This document shows, one piece after another, positions 46,640 through 60,582 of a stretch of 64,000 nt of DNA. Below the pieces are notes generated by a model. That model was not told where the DNA came from. It saw only the letters and a list, made by a program, of their open reading frames with translations, and searched no databases. This stretch comes from an uncultured Acidobacteriota bacterium (GTDB taxonomy: Bacteria > Acidobacteriota > Polarisedimenticolia > QHYA01 > CAVVHA01), in NCBI GenBank assembly GCA_963747925.1, contig CAVVHA010000012.1, forward strand, positions 133,222 through 197,221, given 5' to 3'. Both the position numbers and the translations under genes were made by a program. Positions within the stretch are counted from its first letter, which is position 1. Each line of letters begins with the position of its first letter.

Positions 46640-47277
46640 ATGCACCACGAACCGAAGCCGCCCGATGCCGCGGAAGACCAGGAACTGGTCCGAAAGGCGG
46701 CCGGGGGCGACGAAAGGGCCTTCGAGGCCCTGGTGCGTCGCAAGAGGGAGAGGGTCTTCTGGATAGCCAACCGGATCGTCGGCAACGAAGAGGATGCGCG
46801 GGAGATCGCGCAGTCGGTCTTCATCCGCCTCTGGAAGGTCCTGCCGAAATACGACCCCGCGCAGAGCTTCGACACCTGGCTGTACAGGATCACCGTGAAC
46901 CTGGCGATCGATCAGTACCGCTCGCGCGGCCCGGCGAGGACGTTCGCGCCCTTCGAGGAGGGCGGGGGAGCGGCCACGGGCGACCGGGCGCCGGTCACGG
47001 CGGAAACGACCCCCTCGCGGCCCTGACGGCGGCCGAGCTGAAAACGGTCTTCGAGCGCCTGGCGGCGCGGCTCGGCGAGAAGCAGCGCGCGATCTTCGTC
47101 CTGAGCCAGCTCGAGGGGATGCCCACCGAGGAGATCGCCCGGGTCATGGGGATCTCGCACTCGACGGTGCGGAACCACCTGTTCCAGGCGCGCCGCTCCC
47201 TGCAGGAGGGGCTGCGGCTTCTCTACCCCGAGTACTACCGCGCCGCGAAGGGGCGGACCGGGCCCACGGAATCGTGA
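46640..47277 (+). CDS. ECF-type (sigma-70 family group IV) RNA polymerase sigma factor (one frame switch)
   Basis: Region 2 is ERAFEALVRRKRERVFWIANRIVGNEEDAREIAQSVFIRLWKVLPKYDP...FDTWLYRITVNLAIDQYR (ORF 46640..47026). Region 4 lies in another frame (KQRAIFVLSQLEGMPTEEIARVMGISHSTVRNHLFQARRSL) and ends at TGA 47275-47277. Confidence 0.85.
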
Positions 47278-47287
47278 GGGAGGCCGC

Positions 47288-48028
47288 GTGAGCGACTGCC
47301 GCGCGATGGCGCGCGCGCTCGCCGAGGGGGCGGGCCTCGGAGGCCGCCCGTTCTCCGCCGACGAGTCGGGCATCTCGCCTCGTGCGCCCCGTGCCGGGAG
47401 GCCCTGGCGGCTTCCGATCCGACCGCCCTGTTTTCGACGCTCGCGCTCGAGCGCAAGGACGACTCCTTCTGGCTGGGGTTCGAGACGCGGTGCTCGCGGG
47501 GATCCGCGAGGAATCCCGCGCCCGCTCCGGCCTGCTGGCCCGGCTGGTGCGCCCGCGCCTGGCGCTGCTCGCCGGGGGCGCGGCCCTGATCGCCATCGTC
47601 ACGCTGGTGGCGCGCGGCGGCGCGATCCCCGGCCCGTTCCGGGCGGCGGCATCGCGCGCGCCGGCGGAGCCCACGCCCGGCCCGACGCGCCGCTCGGCGC
47701 GATCGACTGGGTCGCCGGGGCCGCCCGCGCGGTCCTGGGCGAGGAAGGACCGGGGCGCGAAGAACGGCGCCGGCGCCGAGCCGGCCGCGGTCGCCGCGCT
47801 CGCGCCGGGCTGGGACGAAGCGCTCCCGCTCGAGCTGGACGCCGCGCCGCCCGCCCCGTGGAGACCGTTTCCTCCCCGACCGCGCACATCATCAGCCTCA
47901 GCATCGAGCCCGAGGGGGGAACGCTCGCGGCCGAGCCGCGCGCCGGCGCCCGGCAGGCGGCGGGCGCGGCGGTCCTGCCGGCCGCCTCGGACGTCGTCCT
48001 GATCGTGGACCGGGAGATGGACATCTGA
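47288..48028 (+). CDS. putative anti-sigma factor (zf-HC2-like, single TM), at least 2 frame switches
   Basis: The GTG start lies 10 nt after the sigma gene. HLASCAPCREAL (H-x3-C-x2-C) and the TM LALLAGGAALIAIVTLVA appear in the frame of ORF 47382..48002. The end (...SDVVLIVDREMDI) is in ORF 47288..48028. The stop overlaps the next start (TGATG). Confidence 0.6.
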   Translation: MSDCRAMARALAEGAGLGGRPFSADESGISPRAPRAGRPWRLPIRPPCFRRSRSSARTTPSGWGSRRGARGDPRGIPRPLRPAGPAGAPAPGAARRGRGPDRHRHAGGARRRDPRPVPGGGIARAGGAHARPDAPLGAIDWVAGAARAVLGEEGPGREERRRRRAGRGRRARAGLGRSAPARAGRRAARPVETVSSPTAHIISLSIEPEGGTLAAEPRAGARQAAGAAVLPAASDVVLIVDREMDI

Positions 48029-48862
48029 TGCGGCCGGCCCGGCTCCTGCTCGCGTCTCGTCGCGGCGGCGCTGCTCGTCGCGGCGCCGTTCGCCCCGTGC
48101 CGGCCCGCCCGGGCCCAGACGGTCGCGGCCGACGGCGCCGGGAAGGCCCCCGCGGCGACGGCGCCCCCCGCCGCCCCGGCGCGCGCCGGGCGGGCGGCGC
48201 CGCGCCCCGCCGGCGCGCAGCCGCCGGCGGCGCGGGTGAAACGCTCGCCGTGCGCGCCTTCACGATCAAGTTCCGCGATCCCGGGGACGTGGCCCTGCTC
48301 GTCGGCCCGCATGCTCAGCGACAAGGGGTCGGTGACGACCGTCCCGAAGCTCCGCACGGTGACGGTCCAGGACCGGCGCGAGATCCTGGACCGCATCCAG
48401 GACCTGATCGCCTCCTACGACGTTCCGCCGCGCAACGTCGAGTTCACCGTCACGCTGATCCTGGCCAGCCGGGCCGGGGAGGCGGGCGGGTCGATCTCCC
48501 GGGAGGTCCGCGGCATCACGGAGGCGCTGCCCGACATCACGCGCTGGACCGACTACAGGACGCTCGACTCGGTGACGATCGCGGGCAGCGAAGGCTCCCG
48601 CACGGCCCGCGAGCTCGCGAACGCGTACCGGATCGAGTTCGAGCTCGAGACCGTGAGCGAGAGCCGAGGGATCATCCGGCTCAACCCTTTCTCCCTGCAG
48701 AAGGTGGAGAAGGGACCGGGCGGGGAGACCGTGTACCGGCCGGTGTACACGACCACCGTGAACCTCAAGAACGACAAGCTCCTGACGATCGGGGCGACGA
48801 AGAGCGAGACGAGCCCGAAGGCGCTGTTCCTCGCGATCCGCGCCCACATCGAGAACCCTTAG
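48028..48862 (+). CDS. secreted protein with secretin-N (N0/N1)-like domain (about 3 frame switches)
   Basis: A signal-like segment (LLLASLVAAALLVAAPFA) is followed by an Ala/Pro linker. Then come VRAFTIKFRDPGDVALLVGP|MLSDKGSVTTVPKLRTVTVQDRREILDRIQDLIASYDVPPRNVEFTVTLILA and a beta-rich C-terminus. Pieces alternate between the frames of ORFs 48028..49827 and 48236..48862. Confidence 0.5.
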
Positions 48863-48882
48863 GAACCGGGGGAGAGGAAGAC

Positions 48883-58565: not shown

Positions 58566-58584
58566 CAGGAGAAAGGGCAGCGAG

Positions 58585-59601
58585 ATGAGATCCTGGAAGA
58601 GAACCCTGGCGTCAGCCGCGCTGATCGCGTCCGCAGCGCTCATCGGAGGGTGCGAGCGAACGGACCCGATCGCGCCCGCCTCGTCGACCATCGACCTGAC
58701 GGCCAACCCCTCGACGATCGACCTCACGCAGCGGACGAGCGGGTCGTCCATCATCACCGCCATCGCCCTCGACAAGGACGGTCGTCCCCTGTCGGGCGTC
58801 AAGGTCTACTTCTCGACCAATTCGGGGACCCTTCGCTCGGGCGGGGACGGGGTGACGGTGAACGGGAGCGGCCTGGCGCGGGACGTCCTGACGCTGCAGC
58901 GGGGCGACGAAGCCGCGACGGTCACGGCGAAGGCCACCGGCGCGGGGTCGGACACGGTGACGGTCTCGACCATCGAGCCGGGCGCGCCGACGATCACGAT
59001 GCAGGCGAACCCCACGTCGATCGATCTGTCGACCGACACGGATGGCACGTCCGCGATCGTGGCGACCGTGCGGCGCGACACCGGCGAGCCCTATGAGGGC
59101 GTGAGCGTCCTCTTCTCGGGGACGTCCGGCTCGCTCGCGTCCGGCGGCAGCCCCCGGCCGACCGACGCCAACGGTCAGGCCCGGGACACCCTGACGCTGA
59201 GCCGGAGCGACGTGAGCTCGACGGTCACGGGCAGGGTGCAGGGTTATTCCGCCCAGGCGACGGTGACGGTGTCGGTCAGCATGCCGTTGAGTCTCGAGGT
59301 CTTCGCCAACCCCGGGGCGATCGATCTCATGACGGCCACGAGCGGCACCTCGCAGATCACCGCGAGCGTCCGGCGGGTCTTCGACAACACGCCCGTGGCC
59401 GGTGTCTCCGTCACGTTCTCGATCACGGCCGGCACCGGGAACCTGTCGACCACCGCGCCGGTGGTGACCGACTCGACCGGCCAGGCGAAGTGCACCCTGA
59501 CGATGACCCGGACCGACGCGAACGCGACGGTCAGGGCGGTGGGCGCAGGGATCGCCACTCCGGCCACGGTGACGGTGGTGACGGTCAGGCCCGCGCGGTA
59601 G
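58585..59601 (+). CDS. lipoprotein with three Big_1-like (invasin/intimin-type Ig-like) repeats (intact)
   Basis: Lipobox ALIGGC. Three ~95-aa units each match the pattern ...I(D/T)L..NP..IDL.....G.S.I.A.V.......(P).GV.V.F....G.L.......TD..G.A...LTL.R.D....VT... Examples are ITAIALDKDGRPLSGVKVYFSTNSGTL, IVATVRRDTGEPYEGVSVLFSGTSGSL and ITASVRRVFDNTPVAGVSVTFSITAGTG. Confidence 0.7.
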   Translation: MRSWKRTLASAALIASAALIGGCERTDPIAPASSTIDLTANPSTIDLTQRTSGSSIITAIALDKDGRPLSGVKVYFSTNSGTLRSGGDGVTVNGSGLARDVLTLQRGDEAATVTAKATGAGSDTVTVSTIEPGAPTITMQANPTSIDLSTDTDGTSAIVATVRRDTGEPYEGVSVLFSGTSGSLASGGSPRPTDANGQARDTLTLSRSDVSSTVTGRVQGYSAQATVTVSVSMPLSLEVFANPGAIDLMTATSGTSQITASVRRVFDNTPVAGVSVTFSITAGTGNLSTTAPVVTDSTGQAKCTLTMTRTDANATVRAVGAGIATPATVTVVTVRPAR

Positions 59602-59662
59602 ACGTCCGCGGCGCCCCGGGTCCGAGCGCGGGGCGCGCGCGGCAGGAACGAGCGTTGAGCAG

Positions 59663-60582
59663 GATGGGAGCGCGAACGGAGAGCCCCGGGTCCCCGGGAC
59701 GGGGCGCAGGGCGGGACGCGGGCCGGTCGCCCGCGGCGGCCCGCGCGCGCCGCGGCCCCGCCGCGCGGGCGCGCGAGGCCGGGCACACCCTTCTCATCGT
59801 GGTGCGTGATCGTCGCCACCATGATGGTCGGCATGACGGTCGCGATGCGGGTCTGGAGCACCGTCCTCAAGCGGGAGAAGGAGGACGAGCTGATCTTCCG
59901 CGGCAGGCAGTACGCCATGGCGCTCTACCTGTACCGCAAGCAGCGCGGGACGCTCCCGACCGACCTCAAGCAGCTCTCCGAGCTCGGCCCCGCCCAGACG
60001 TACGTGCTTCGCCAGCCGTGGAAGGACCCGATCACGGGGCAGGACTTCGGCATCATCATGGCCGGCCCGAACAACACCCCGATCCCGGACGAGCCGGTCG
60101 AGTACGGCGACGCCGATTCGAGCACCCAGCTCGGGCTCGGGAGCACCGCGCCGAGGCCGGCGTCGTCGTTCGGCAATCCCTCCGATTCCTCGCTGGCCAG
60201 CTCGTTCGGGCAGACGGGCGGGAAGCCCTCCGCGTTCGGCGGGACGATGGGCGGCGTTCCCCAGGCCGGCCAGACCACCTCCGGCGGGCTCCCGATCATG
60301 GGCGTGCACAGCAAGAGCCACGACACCGCCCAGGCCCCGGCCAAGTGGAACGATCTCGACCGGTACAACCAGTGGTTCTTCCTGGTCACGGACCTGACCG
60401 GCCAGGGGACCGCGCCGAGGCTCCAGATCCCCGGCGGGGGCCTGCCCGGCCAGGGAATGCCCGGCACGGCTTCGCCCGGCGGCGGAGGATTCGGCGGACG
60501 GGGCGCCACGCCCGGCGGCAACCGCCCGGGCTCCGGCTTCGGCGGGGGCGGCGGCGGCAAGCCGGGCCCCGACAGCGACTGA
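59663..60582 (+). CDS. pseudopilin-like protein with long Gly-rich C-terminal tail (one frame switch)
   Basis: The leader MGARTESPG...AREAGHTLLIV lies in the frame of ORF 59490..60626. It joins ORF 59806..60582 (VIVATMMVGMTVAMRVWSTVLKREKEDELIFRGRQYAMALYLYRK...QPWKDPITGQDF). The tail is ...GGGLPGQGMPGTASPGGGGFGGRGATPGGNRPGSGFGGGGGGKPGPDSD. Confidence 0.55.

Follow-up and report, generated by a model that had tools for sequence, protein, structure and literature searches.

The DNA analysed here is a window of 64,000 nucleotides (nt) from an uncultured Acidobacteriota bacterium (GCA_963747925.1, contig CAVVHA010000012.1, positions 133,222-197,221 of the forward strand), and our subject is a cluster of about 14 kb at window positions 46640-60582, where 14 tightly packed genes all lie on the + strand. 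We consider it probable (roughly 0.65) that these genes form one operon for a non-canonical machine from the superfamily of type IV filaments (TFF), that this machine shares a lineage with the 'unorthodox type II secretion system (T2SS)' of Ralstonia, Paraburkholderia and Janthinobacterium, that it is a pseudopilus secretion system driven by an extracytoplasmic-function (ECF) sigma factor, and that the frameshifts in its genes are errors. By homology, the core machine comprises an assembly ATPase, an inner-membrane platform, a PilM-PilN-PilO-PilP complex replacing GspL/M/C, a lipoprotein secretin with tetratricopeptide repeats (TPR) and a cohesin domain, and three GspG-like (pseudo)pilins. The acidobacterial extras are the ECF sigma factor, a zinc-associated anti-sigma (ZAS) factor of the zinc-finger, membrane type and a predicted miniature secretin, all encoded at the 5' end, and an immunoglobulin (Ig)-like lipoprotein encoded among the pilin genes. 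The core layout was known before from the Ralstonia system, and ECF control of a T2SS from P. aeruginosa; the ECF/ZAS/mini-secretin head and the Ig-like lipoprotein are new.

The window has a G+C content of about 70%, and spurious open reading frames are abundant. In third-position GC frame plots the coding signal of the + strand runs without a break from about 46.6 to 60.6 kb, with repeated jumps of frame inside genes. A Pfam profile search on the in-frame pieces of the window genes recovered Sigma70_r2 (from 46640), Secretin_N (48236-48859), two T2SSF domains (49025-50108), MshEN and T2SSE (50077-51717), T2SSM_b/PilO (53952-54563), TPR, Secretin_N, Secretin and Cohesin (55200-57609), N_methyl (58161-58562) and Big_1/Invasin_D3 (58585-59598). 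These matches bear out the inventory of 14 co-directional genes given in an earlier note made from the letters alone (the sequence-only reading). Lesions in the genes were located by frameshift-aware alignment of the intact proteins of a related locus (L003) to the window and by alignment to a 96.3%-identical contig (L004).

Table 1. Genes and promoter motif of the cluster, with the lesions located in each gene (window coordinates).
Feature	Position	Strand	Characteristics	Lesions
ECF-type promoter motif	46607..46633	+	CTAGAC-N17-CGTA; sole perfect match in the window	
ECF sigma factor	46640..47277	+	stop TGA 47275-47277	1 frameshift, near 47021
ZAS-type anti-sigma factor	47288..48028	+	N-terminal HxxxCxxC (GHLASCAPC), one transmembrane (TM) helix	about 3 frameshifts, near 47365, 47491, 47800
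Miniature secretin (predicted)	48028..48862	+	signal peptide, one Secretin_N-type domain, short all-beta pore-like domain	1 frameshift, near 48310
GspF/PilC inner-membrane platform	48883..50111	+	two T2SSF domains	3 frameshifts, near 48994, 49592, 49801
GspE/PilB-family assembly ATPase	50113..51802	+	MshEN-type N domain, T2SSE	about 14 frameshifts; in-frame stop 50752
PilM-like actin-fold protein	51807..52807	+	placed by alignment to L003 ortholog	at least 2 frameshifts (52239, 52324)
PilN-like bitopic protein	52804..53955	+	low-complexity C-terminal tail; placed by alignment to L003	2 frameshifts, near 52891, 53033
PilO/GspM-like protein	53955..54566	+		intact
PilP/GspC-HR-like protein	54569..55188	+	N-terminal TM helix, charged helix, C-terminal small beta domain	1 frameshift, 54664-54675
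Outer-membrane secretin	55200..57612	+	lipoprotein; TPR-Secretin_N-Secretin-(Pro/Ala linker)-Cohesin	1-nt insertion at 56216 (extra A)
Pseudopilin 1	57618..58174	+	GspG-like fold with insertion; prepilin N-terminus containing Glu5	at least 1; indels 57679-57718
GspG-like probable major pseudopilin	58161..58565	+	134 aa, GFTLIEL, no cysteines	intact
Ig-like (Big_1/Invasin_D3) lipoprotein	58585..59601	+	three Big_1 stretches; lipobox LIGGC	intact
Pseudopilin 3	59760..60582	+	hydrophobic N-terminus without Glu5, GspG-like core, Gly-rich tail; start codon not placed	1-nt insertion at 59804

The sigma factor matched Pfam Sigma70_r2 (E 3.7e-18), its frameshift-aware alignment to the L003 ortholog spanned regions 2 and 4, and that ortholog passed the NCBIfam model TIGR02937 (sigma70-ECF) with 99 bits against a cutoff of 43. 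The anti-sigma gene begins with GTG 10 nt past the sigma stop, and the N-terminus of its product agrees with that of the anti-sigma factor of L001. Its orthologs (150-200 aa) carry HxxxCxxC and then DPxxLFxLL, have one TM helix, and in most genomes their genes share 4 nt with the neighbour on either side. The anti-sigma factor was matched by no family of Pfam or NCBIfam, and no FecR or STN (secretin/TonB N-terminal) model of either database matched it or the small secretin-family protein encoded beside it. Sigma regions 2 and 4, an HxxxCxxC anti-sigma factor with a TM helix and a conserved CGT-type -10 motif (described below) together mark the two proteins as an ECF sigma/ZAS pair.

The platform protein aligned over its full length to L003 GspF (residues 1-410). 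The frameshift-corrected ATPase aligned to residues 16-541 of its L003 ortholog, with CTG at the expected start codon, and its Walker A (GPTGSGKT) and tetracysteine (CTTC...CIEC) motifs were visible only after correction. The sequence-only reading had taken the tetracysteine for a T2SS hallmark, which does not hold, since PilB proteins carry it too. Among the four small proteins that follow, the PilM-like one was recognised in L003 by NCBIfam pilM (E 8.4e-8) and Pfam PilM_2 (E 5e-4), the latter also in L002, L096 and L097. The two best Protein Data Bank (PDB) matches of the PilN ortholog profile were PilN of M. xanthus (E 0.0025) and of Thermus (E 0.057), next to a Pfam PilN match (E 0.004). 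The PilO-like protein reached 21.7 bits with Pfam T2SSM_b, exactly at the cutoff, 21.2 bits with PilO and E 3e-5 with NCBIfam GspM, and its Janthinobacterium ortholog is annotated as PilO by the NCBI Prokaryotic Genome Annotation Pipeline (PGAP). For the PilP-like protein (start ATG 54569, directly followed by the TM helix), Pfam PilP and GspC were not found in any of 20 members, and a search of PDB sequences with the ortholog profile returned nothing but low-complexity artefacts; its identity was therefore reachable by fold only. In an AlphaFold2 (AF2) model of 54769-55185 (predicted local distance difference test score, pLDDT, 68), 10 of the 12 top Foldseek matches were PilP or the homology region (HR) domain of GspC/PulC, with an rmsd of about 3 A over about 70 residues.

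The large secretin was matched by Pfam TPR_2, Secretin_N, Secretin (6.8e-40) and Cohesin (4.9e-8), it has the lipobox LLGGC, and its intact ortholog P0001 (798 aa) is 97% identical. Pseudopilin 1 is 53% identical to L003 pp168 and 39% to Ralstonia pp172, and its 180-aa ortholog in L004 carries N_methyl. The 134-aa pilin matched Pfam N_methyl (E 4.3e-10); its best NCBIfam model was GspG, with 51-55 bits against a cutoff of 88.85, and Pfam T2SSG scored 20.3 against 21. The L003 ortholog of this pilin is 57% identical to the window protein and 42% to Ralstonia pp129. Pseudopilin 3 was delimited by alignment to L003 p251, is the ortholog of Ralstonia pp159 (27%) and gave a weak match to the NCBIfam GspG model; neither it nor the Ig-like lipoprotein belongs to an NCBIfam family. 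The lipoprotein is a candidate cargo or accessory protein; most relatives encode one at the same place, that of L003 having PKD domains instead. When the two genes are compared (58585-59601 and L003 13321-14367), the N-terminal region is kept and the repeated Ig-like domains differ (Big_1/Invasin_D3 vs PKD), which suggests domain swapping in what may be a surface-exposed or ligand-binding lipoprotein.

The third gene product (about 240 aa) is predicted to be a miniature secretin with one N-domain and a pore-like beta domain. The sequence-only reading had called it a small secretin-N-like protein; the Secretin_N domain is indeed matched by Pfam, while Pfam Secretin (PF00263) is not, and the predicted fold makes 'miniature secretin' the better description. 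For the AF2 model of the intact, 98%-identical protein P0121 (core pLDDT 84-93), each of the top 35 Foldseek matches against the PDB was a pore subunit of a secretin (probability 1.0, E 7e-9 to 3e-6), with TM-scores of 0.4-0.5. A profile alignment (hhalign, E 0.002) sets the protein in line with the large secretin, from its last N-domain to where the pore begins. The family comprises 1093 representative clusters, almost all of 225-290 aa, and its divergent members occupy the same sigma-anti-sigma-mini-secretin-gspF context. We also considered the protein as an STN signalling protein like VreA and rejected this, given the lack of an STN match and the secretin pore-like fold. Such a protein was not met in the literature searched, and its coupling to an ECF pathway is the most novel element of the cluster.

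The genes are arranged as expected for one operon. The junction strings TGATG (48026-48030), ATGA (52804-52807) and TGATG (53953-53957) are exactly those that the sequence-only reading had listed. It had also given gaps of 0-20 nt; wherever else the spacing could be resolved, the genes lie 1-20 nt apart or overlap. No gap is defined from the Big_1 gene to the last one, as the start of the latter is not placed. Across 30-70 loci, median intergenic gaps were -4 to +37 nt vs 107 nt after the last gene. The median gap from the mini-secretin gene to gspF was 4.5 nt (34 loci), spacers of 16-22 nt or overlaps were found within the core, and the sigma, anti-sigma and mini-secretin genes mutually overlap by 4 nt in most genomes. 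In 1.1 Mb of related loci, the motif CTAGAC-N17-CGTA was matched 34 times, and about 29 of these sites stand directly 5' of the sigma gene; the motif was found in about 29 of 31 loci, with one copy per locus. Its CGTA (46630-46633 in the window) ends 7 nt before the sigma ATG and leaves no space for a Shine-Dalgarno sequence, so that the sigma gene is probably transcribed with no leader or only a very short one. A CGT-type -10 element and such spacing are typical of ECF promoters. In 46-61 kb, a promoter/terminator scan turned up neither a second copy of the ECF motif nor a sigma-70 consensus promoter or a + strand terminator. The spacer of 100 nt that separates the last cluster gene from an M16 peptidase gene holds a perfect extended -10 element, TGCTATAAT at 60619-60627; this element could serve the next gene and fits an independent promoter for the downstream housekeeping genes.

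The 14-gene order is conserved in related genomes, as the sequence-only reading had left to be checked. We found it with identical flanks in L002, L003, L096 and L097, and the same order was seen in every locus with sufficient flank. The large secretin has more than 2900 homologs with the same architecture (TPR-secretin-cohesin, about 800 aa), and its carriers amount to at least 577 species-level genomes, nearly all of them Acidobacteriota (one genome per species was scanned), including Polarisedimenticolia, Thermoanaerobaculia, metagenome-assembled genomes (MAGs) filed under 'Terriglobia' and the isolate Mor1. The ECF sigma gene lies 7.5-9 kb 5' of the secretin gene in about 32 of the 33 loci whose upstream flank is long enough. 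Loci often have the same neighbours as well, with NrdR-Hsp20-Lon-ThiL-DUF2062 upstream and M16 peptidase-dUTPase-metallo-beta-lactamase (MBL)-PurB downstream. The complete Thermoanaerobaculia chromosome OY969426.1 (L084, 4311-13911) carries the core only, without sigma, anti-sigma, mini-secretin or Ig-like lipoprotein, and the regulatory head therefore behaves as an accessory module.

Following up the best chromid matches of the ATPase, we came upon clusters in Ralstonia solanacearum, Paraburkholderia and Janthinobacterium whose core genes stand in the same order. This order (GspF, GspE, four small PilM/N/O/P-like genes, a TPR/secretin gene with a cohesin-like C-terminus and three pseudopilins) is common to three betaproteobacterial loci (L085, L086 and L091), the window and at least 30 acidobacterial loci. 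Between the two groups the ATPases are 51-52% identical, the secretins 31% over about 580 aa, and the pseudopilins pair one-to-one and reciprocally (39/42/27%, BLASTP); gspC/L/M/H-K are lacking in both. The betaproteobacterial versions differ in several ways: the ECF sigma, the anti-sigma, the mini-secretin and the Ig-like lipoprotein are all missing from them, they have a bona fide GspG in addition (PGAP), and they sit on secondary replicons by RHS or protease genes. Their core layout has already been described in Ralstonia genomics as an 'unorthodox T2SS' (PMC5080846, PMC6428702), and no functional study of it was found in the literature. On a Janthinobacterium lividum plasmid (L091, 4811-7378), a gene for an M4 family metallopeptidase, a candidate substrate, lies directly 5' of gspF; the neighbours of the homologous Ralstonia system include an RHS protein and a type III effector.

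We scored NCBIfam equivalog models on the intact L003 orthologs (bits vs cutoff). The ATPase reached 547 vs 676 with PilB and 545 vs 630 with GspE, the platform 307 vs 424 with GspF and 265 vs 700 with PilC, the secretin 156 vs 351 with GspD, 129 vs 284 with PilQ and 99 vs 250 with MshL, and the pilin 55 vs 89 with GspG. No curated model of a T2SS, type IVa pilus (T4aP) or mannose-sensitive haemagglutinin (MSH) system reached its cutoff, and the cluster is as hard to classify as the sequence-only reading had found it. In the controls, E. coli GspE scored 657 with the GspE model and 523 with the PilB model, and Aeromonas MshE 526/524; the equidistance of the window ATPase from PilB and GspE was dropped as evidence of novelty, since MshE behaves alike. 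The N-terminus of the ATPase is MshEN-type by Pfam, but the MshE cyclic di-GMP motif model NF053729, which matches Aeromonas MshE at 74 bits (L090 7827-9536), was not among the matches in L003 (5178-6803); judged from these profiles, control of the ATPase by cyclic di-GMP may be absent.

Searches by tblastn with E. coli GspC/H/I/J/K/L/M/O, an A24 prepilin peptidase and PilT found none of them in the window or within 10 kb on either side of the cluster in 84 related loci; the PilT query matched only the cluster's own assembly ATPase, and GspM/PilO-type similarity was weak and confined to one protein. The absences noted by the sequence-only reading (prepilin peptidase, GspC/L/M, GspH-K, retraction ATPase) are thereby confirmed, and the relatives do not place these parts just outside the window, an alternative it had raised. 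Its statement that a minor pseudopilin set is lacking needs the qualification that two of the three pilin-like genes, with their one-to-one betaproteobacterial orthologs, may act as minor pseudopilins. We also placed the ATPase in a reference phylogeny, as it had suggested (neighbour-joining, 29 sequences, 448 columns, 500 bootstraps). The sequences from Acidobacteria and from Ralstonia, Paraburkholderia and Janthinobacterium formed one clade with 100% bootstrap, which joined canonical GspE in 0% of the replicates. In the TFF survey of Denise et al., 884 'generic' systems were kept and Acidobacteria are not discussed in the text (PMC6668835).

With the canonical T2SS (Gsp/Pul/Eps/Xcp) the cluster shares homologs of the ATPase, the platform and the secretin, GspG-like pseudopilins, the lack of a retraction ATPase and an HR-domain protein that contacts the secretin (predicted here). 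It differs from it by PilM/N/O/P-like proteins in place of GspC/L/M, by the lack of a GspH-K tip set and of GspO in the cluster, and by a secretin with an N-terminal lipid anchor and TPR and a C-terminal cohesin. With the T4aP machine (PilBCMNOPQ and a TPR pilotin of the PilF/Tgl type) it shares the PilM-N-O-P module encoded upstream of the secretin, all sequence scores being below the family cutoffs, the PilB-like ATPase with its MshEN-type N domain, and the function of the TPR lipoprotein, which is fused to the secretin in the window. Unlike T4aP, it has no PilT/PilU, no disulphide PilA-type pilin and no PilVWX/FimU/PilY1 set, its proteins stay below the PilB, PilC and PilQ cutoffs, and everything is in a single operon. 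The MSH system (MshI-Q) likewise has an ATPase with an equidistant PilB/GspE profile (Aeromonas MshE) and involves a TPR protein and a secretin, but the gene order in the window differs from MshIJKLMNEGF, MshL scored far below its cutoff, NF053729 was not detected, and there is no MshM-like AAA protein.

Two further systems are close to the cluster in wiring or in composition. In the PUMA3 system of P. aeruginosa (VreA-VreI-VreR), the genes directly 5' of the T2SS-type Hxc cluster encode an ECF sigma factor, its anti-sigma factor in the membrane, and a small protein of the periplasm that has a secretin/TonB-N-related domain. HxcQ is a self-piloting lipoprotein secretin. VreI induces the adjacent Hxc genes (PMC2729926), so that the ECF head, found as the sequence-only reading had described it, has a precedent and is less unusual as wiring than was claimed. 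The window differs from PUMA3 in its ZAS-type anti-sigma factor (VreR is FecR-type), in the predicted miniature secretin as third protein (VreA combines an STN signalling domain with a TolA/TonB-like domain), and in a sigma gene that, as we read it, is co-transcribed with the machine and not a separate unit. In Shewanella vesiculosa HM13, a second, reduced T2SS-like cluster was shown by experiment to be needed for the delivery of a neighbour-encoded cargo (PMC6971210). That cluster, compared here by its description, resembles the window in lacking GspCLM/HIJ and in having four unannotated genes before the secretin; it differs in its order (G-E-F...K...D), and no ECF head is reported for it.

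In the mechanism that we propose, an envelope signal would free the sigma factor from the anti-sigma factor, the sigma factor would fire its own conserved promoter, and all 14 genes would be transcribed as a single unit, by which the operon would be autoregulated. The ATPase and the platform would then polymerise a short GspG-like pseudopilus, once the pilins have been cleaved by a prepilin peptidase encoded elsewhere; this processing is assumed because no such peptidase was found in the searched loci. The pseudopilus would push folded periplasmic proteins, possibly including the operon's own lipoprotein as cargo or accessory protein, through the self-piloted lipo-TPR-secretin. We infer secretion by a short pseudopilus because the pilins are GspG-like and PilT is lacking in the searched loci, because the M4 protease gene adjoins the Janthinobacterium system, and because the Shewanella cluster delivers a neighbour-encoded cargo (PMC6971210).

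The mini-secretin might act as a sensor in this pathway. Together with the ZAS anti-sigma factor it could form an envelope checkpoint, an idea that we put forward as tentative and rather doubtful: the mini-secretin would insert into or co-assemble with the outer-membrane pore, the signal would be assembly, substrate load or outer-membrane stress, and the state of the mini-secretin would be relayed to the short periplasmic tail of the anti-sigma factor, freeing the sigma factor, and the machine would control its own synthesis. If true, signalling would here follow a new principle, with a secretin-family protein sensing for an ECF pathway, and this checkpoint would head a TFF lineage outside T2SS, T4aP and MSH alike, widespread among the Acidobacteriota of soils and sediments.

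Several observations weigh against this explanation. The genes of the cluster do not translate as given in this assembly, no prepilin peptidase turned up in the searched loci, and PilMNOP, like the TPR lipoprotein module, is in the style of a T4aP. The raw PDB score of the ATPase is slightly closer to PilB than to GspE (426 vs 373 bits), and the ATPase tree is a small neighbour-joining tree with few references that does not resolve the sister group. The mini-secretin is assigned from a predicted structure with Foldseek TM-scores of only 0.4-0.5 and from a weak profile match to the large secretin (hhalign, E 0.002), and the probable recognition of CTAGAC-N17-CGTA by this sigma factor is read from the position and conservation of the motif. 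Some of these points would suit a machine that builds a true pilus on the cell surface, as a variant of T4aP serving adhesion, motility or the uptake of DNA, in which the 134-aa protein is the major pilin of an extended fibre: the alignment proteins are PilM/N/O/P-like, the best solved relatives of the ATPase are PilB of Geobacter and Myxococcus, its equidistant profile is MshE-like, the TPR lipoprotein module of the secretin resembles T4aP pilotins (PilF, PilW and Tgl are TPR lipoproteins), and the Ig-like lipoprotein could be a pilus-associated adhesin. We nevertheless hold such a pilus to be unlikely, with neither PilT nor PilU encoded in the window or, for the 84 related loci, less than 10 kb from the cluster, short pilins without cysteines that score best to GspG and not PilA, a bona fide GspG in the betaproteobacterial versions, and scores below the PilB, PilC and PilQ equivalog cutoffs. 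That the cluster is simply an ordinary but divergent canonical T2SS, T4aP or MSH system is very improbable. Every core protein is clearly homologous to Gsp/Pil families, and the secretin is called 'general secretion pathway protein D' by Joint Genome Institute (JGI) pipelines, but all equivalog cutoffs were missed by wide margins, GspC/H/I/J/K/L/M are absent from the searched loci, the MSH gene order and MshL score do not fit, and the ATPases form a separate clade with full support.

Two more alternatives concern the head of the cluster and the state of its genes. The ECF sigma/anti-sigma pair could be merely adjacent and control other genes, the machine having its own promoter; core-only versions without the pair exist (L084 and Betaproteobacteria), and internal promoters of another type would escape a sigma-70 consensus scan. 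The 4-nt overlaps that join sigma, anti-sigma and mini-secretin, the short gap from there to gspF and the single conserved motif before the sigma gene argue that the pair is not independent, as the sequence-only reading had it, and the trio always accompanies the machine, including where the mini-secretin is divergent; we therefore regard mere adjacency as quite improbable. The cluster could also be a decaying pseudogene array with real frameshifts. The frameshifts mentioned by the sequence-only reading are borne out: about 30 lesions break 11 of the 14 genes in 14 kb, only the genes of the PilO-like protein, the 134-aa pilin and the Big_1 lipoprotein are free of lesions, and the ATPase gene is hit most densely, with about 9 lesions per kb, exceeding the rest of the window. 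But frameshift junctions split genes across the whole window, namely Lon (43531-43541), ThiL (44942-44951), a lysylphosphatidylglycerol (LPG)-synthase-like membrane protein (40255-40304), an NFACT-like protein (39187-39215), a sulfatase (23511-23558), a membrane glycosyltransferase-like protein (6149-6150) and an MBL hydrolase (62680-62848). The corrected proteins retain the Walker A and tetracysteine motifs and normal identity to their orthologs, and close relatives are intact (L004, 96% nt identity; P0121, 98% aa identity). Compared with the 86%-identical L001, an independent assembly, gspE has among the lowest substitution rates (11.3%) and the most gap openings (34 in 1.7 kb), and the gspE of L001 is itself fragmented (5599-6186 region). 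This indel hot spot (50113-51802) suggests a sequence-context-specific basecalling or polishing problem. Because housekeeping genes are struck as well, motifs are kept after correction, near-identical relatives are intact and gspE combines low substitution divergence with the most indels, the frameshifts point to sequencing or assembly errors and not to gene decay, which we consider scarcely credible; the assembly is error-prone throughout the window.

Acidobacteriota are among the most abundant bacteria of soils and sediments, and to our knowledge almost nothing is known of how they export proteins or build surface fibres. The operon is found in hundreds of species-level genomes and belongs to a TFF lineage whose only named members are the 'unorthodox T2SS' of Ralstonia, and it fills a gap in the classification into T2SS, T4aP and MSH. 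For experiments it offers several handles: four 'hypothetical' genes are of the PilM/N/O/P type, the secretin is a lipo-TPR-secretin-cohesin fusion, the ECF sigma factor has a defined promoter motif through which it would regulate itself, and the miniature secretin, if the prediction holds, is novel. As a practical warning, such clusters are shredded into fragments in error-prone long-read assemblies and are easily missed there.

Some minor observations were made along the way. The synteny of housekeeping genes around the cluster (39990-46610 and 60683-64000 in the window; L002, L003, L096) spans genomes with only about 50% secretin identity, and it also includes an LPG-synthase TM protein upstream and further purine genes downstream. 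Four short contigs with an acidobacterial-type secretin (L036, L047, L065 and L076) are filed under Binatia, Cryosericum, Dongiaceae and Actinomycetes MAGs; these assignments are probably binning errors and not the true hosts. Finally, Rfam and tRNA scans gave nothing inside the cluster, and the sole RNA gene detected in the window was a tRNA-Leu(CAA) at 36982-37070 on the - strand (ARAGORN, Rfam).

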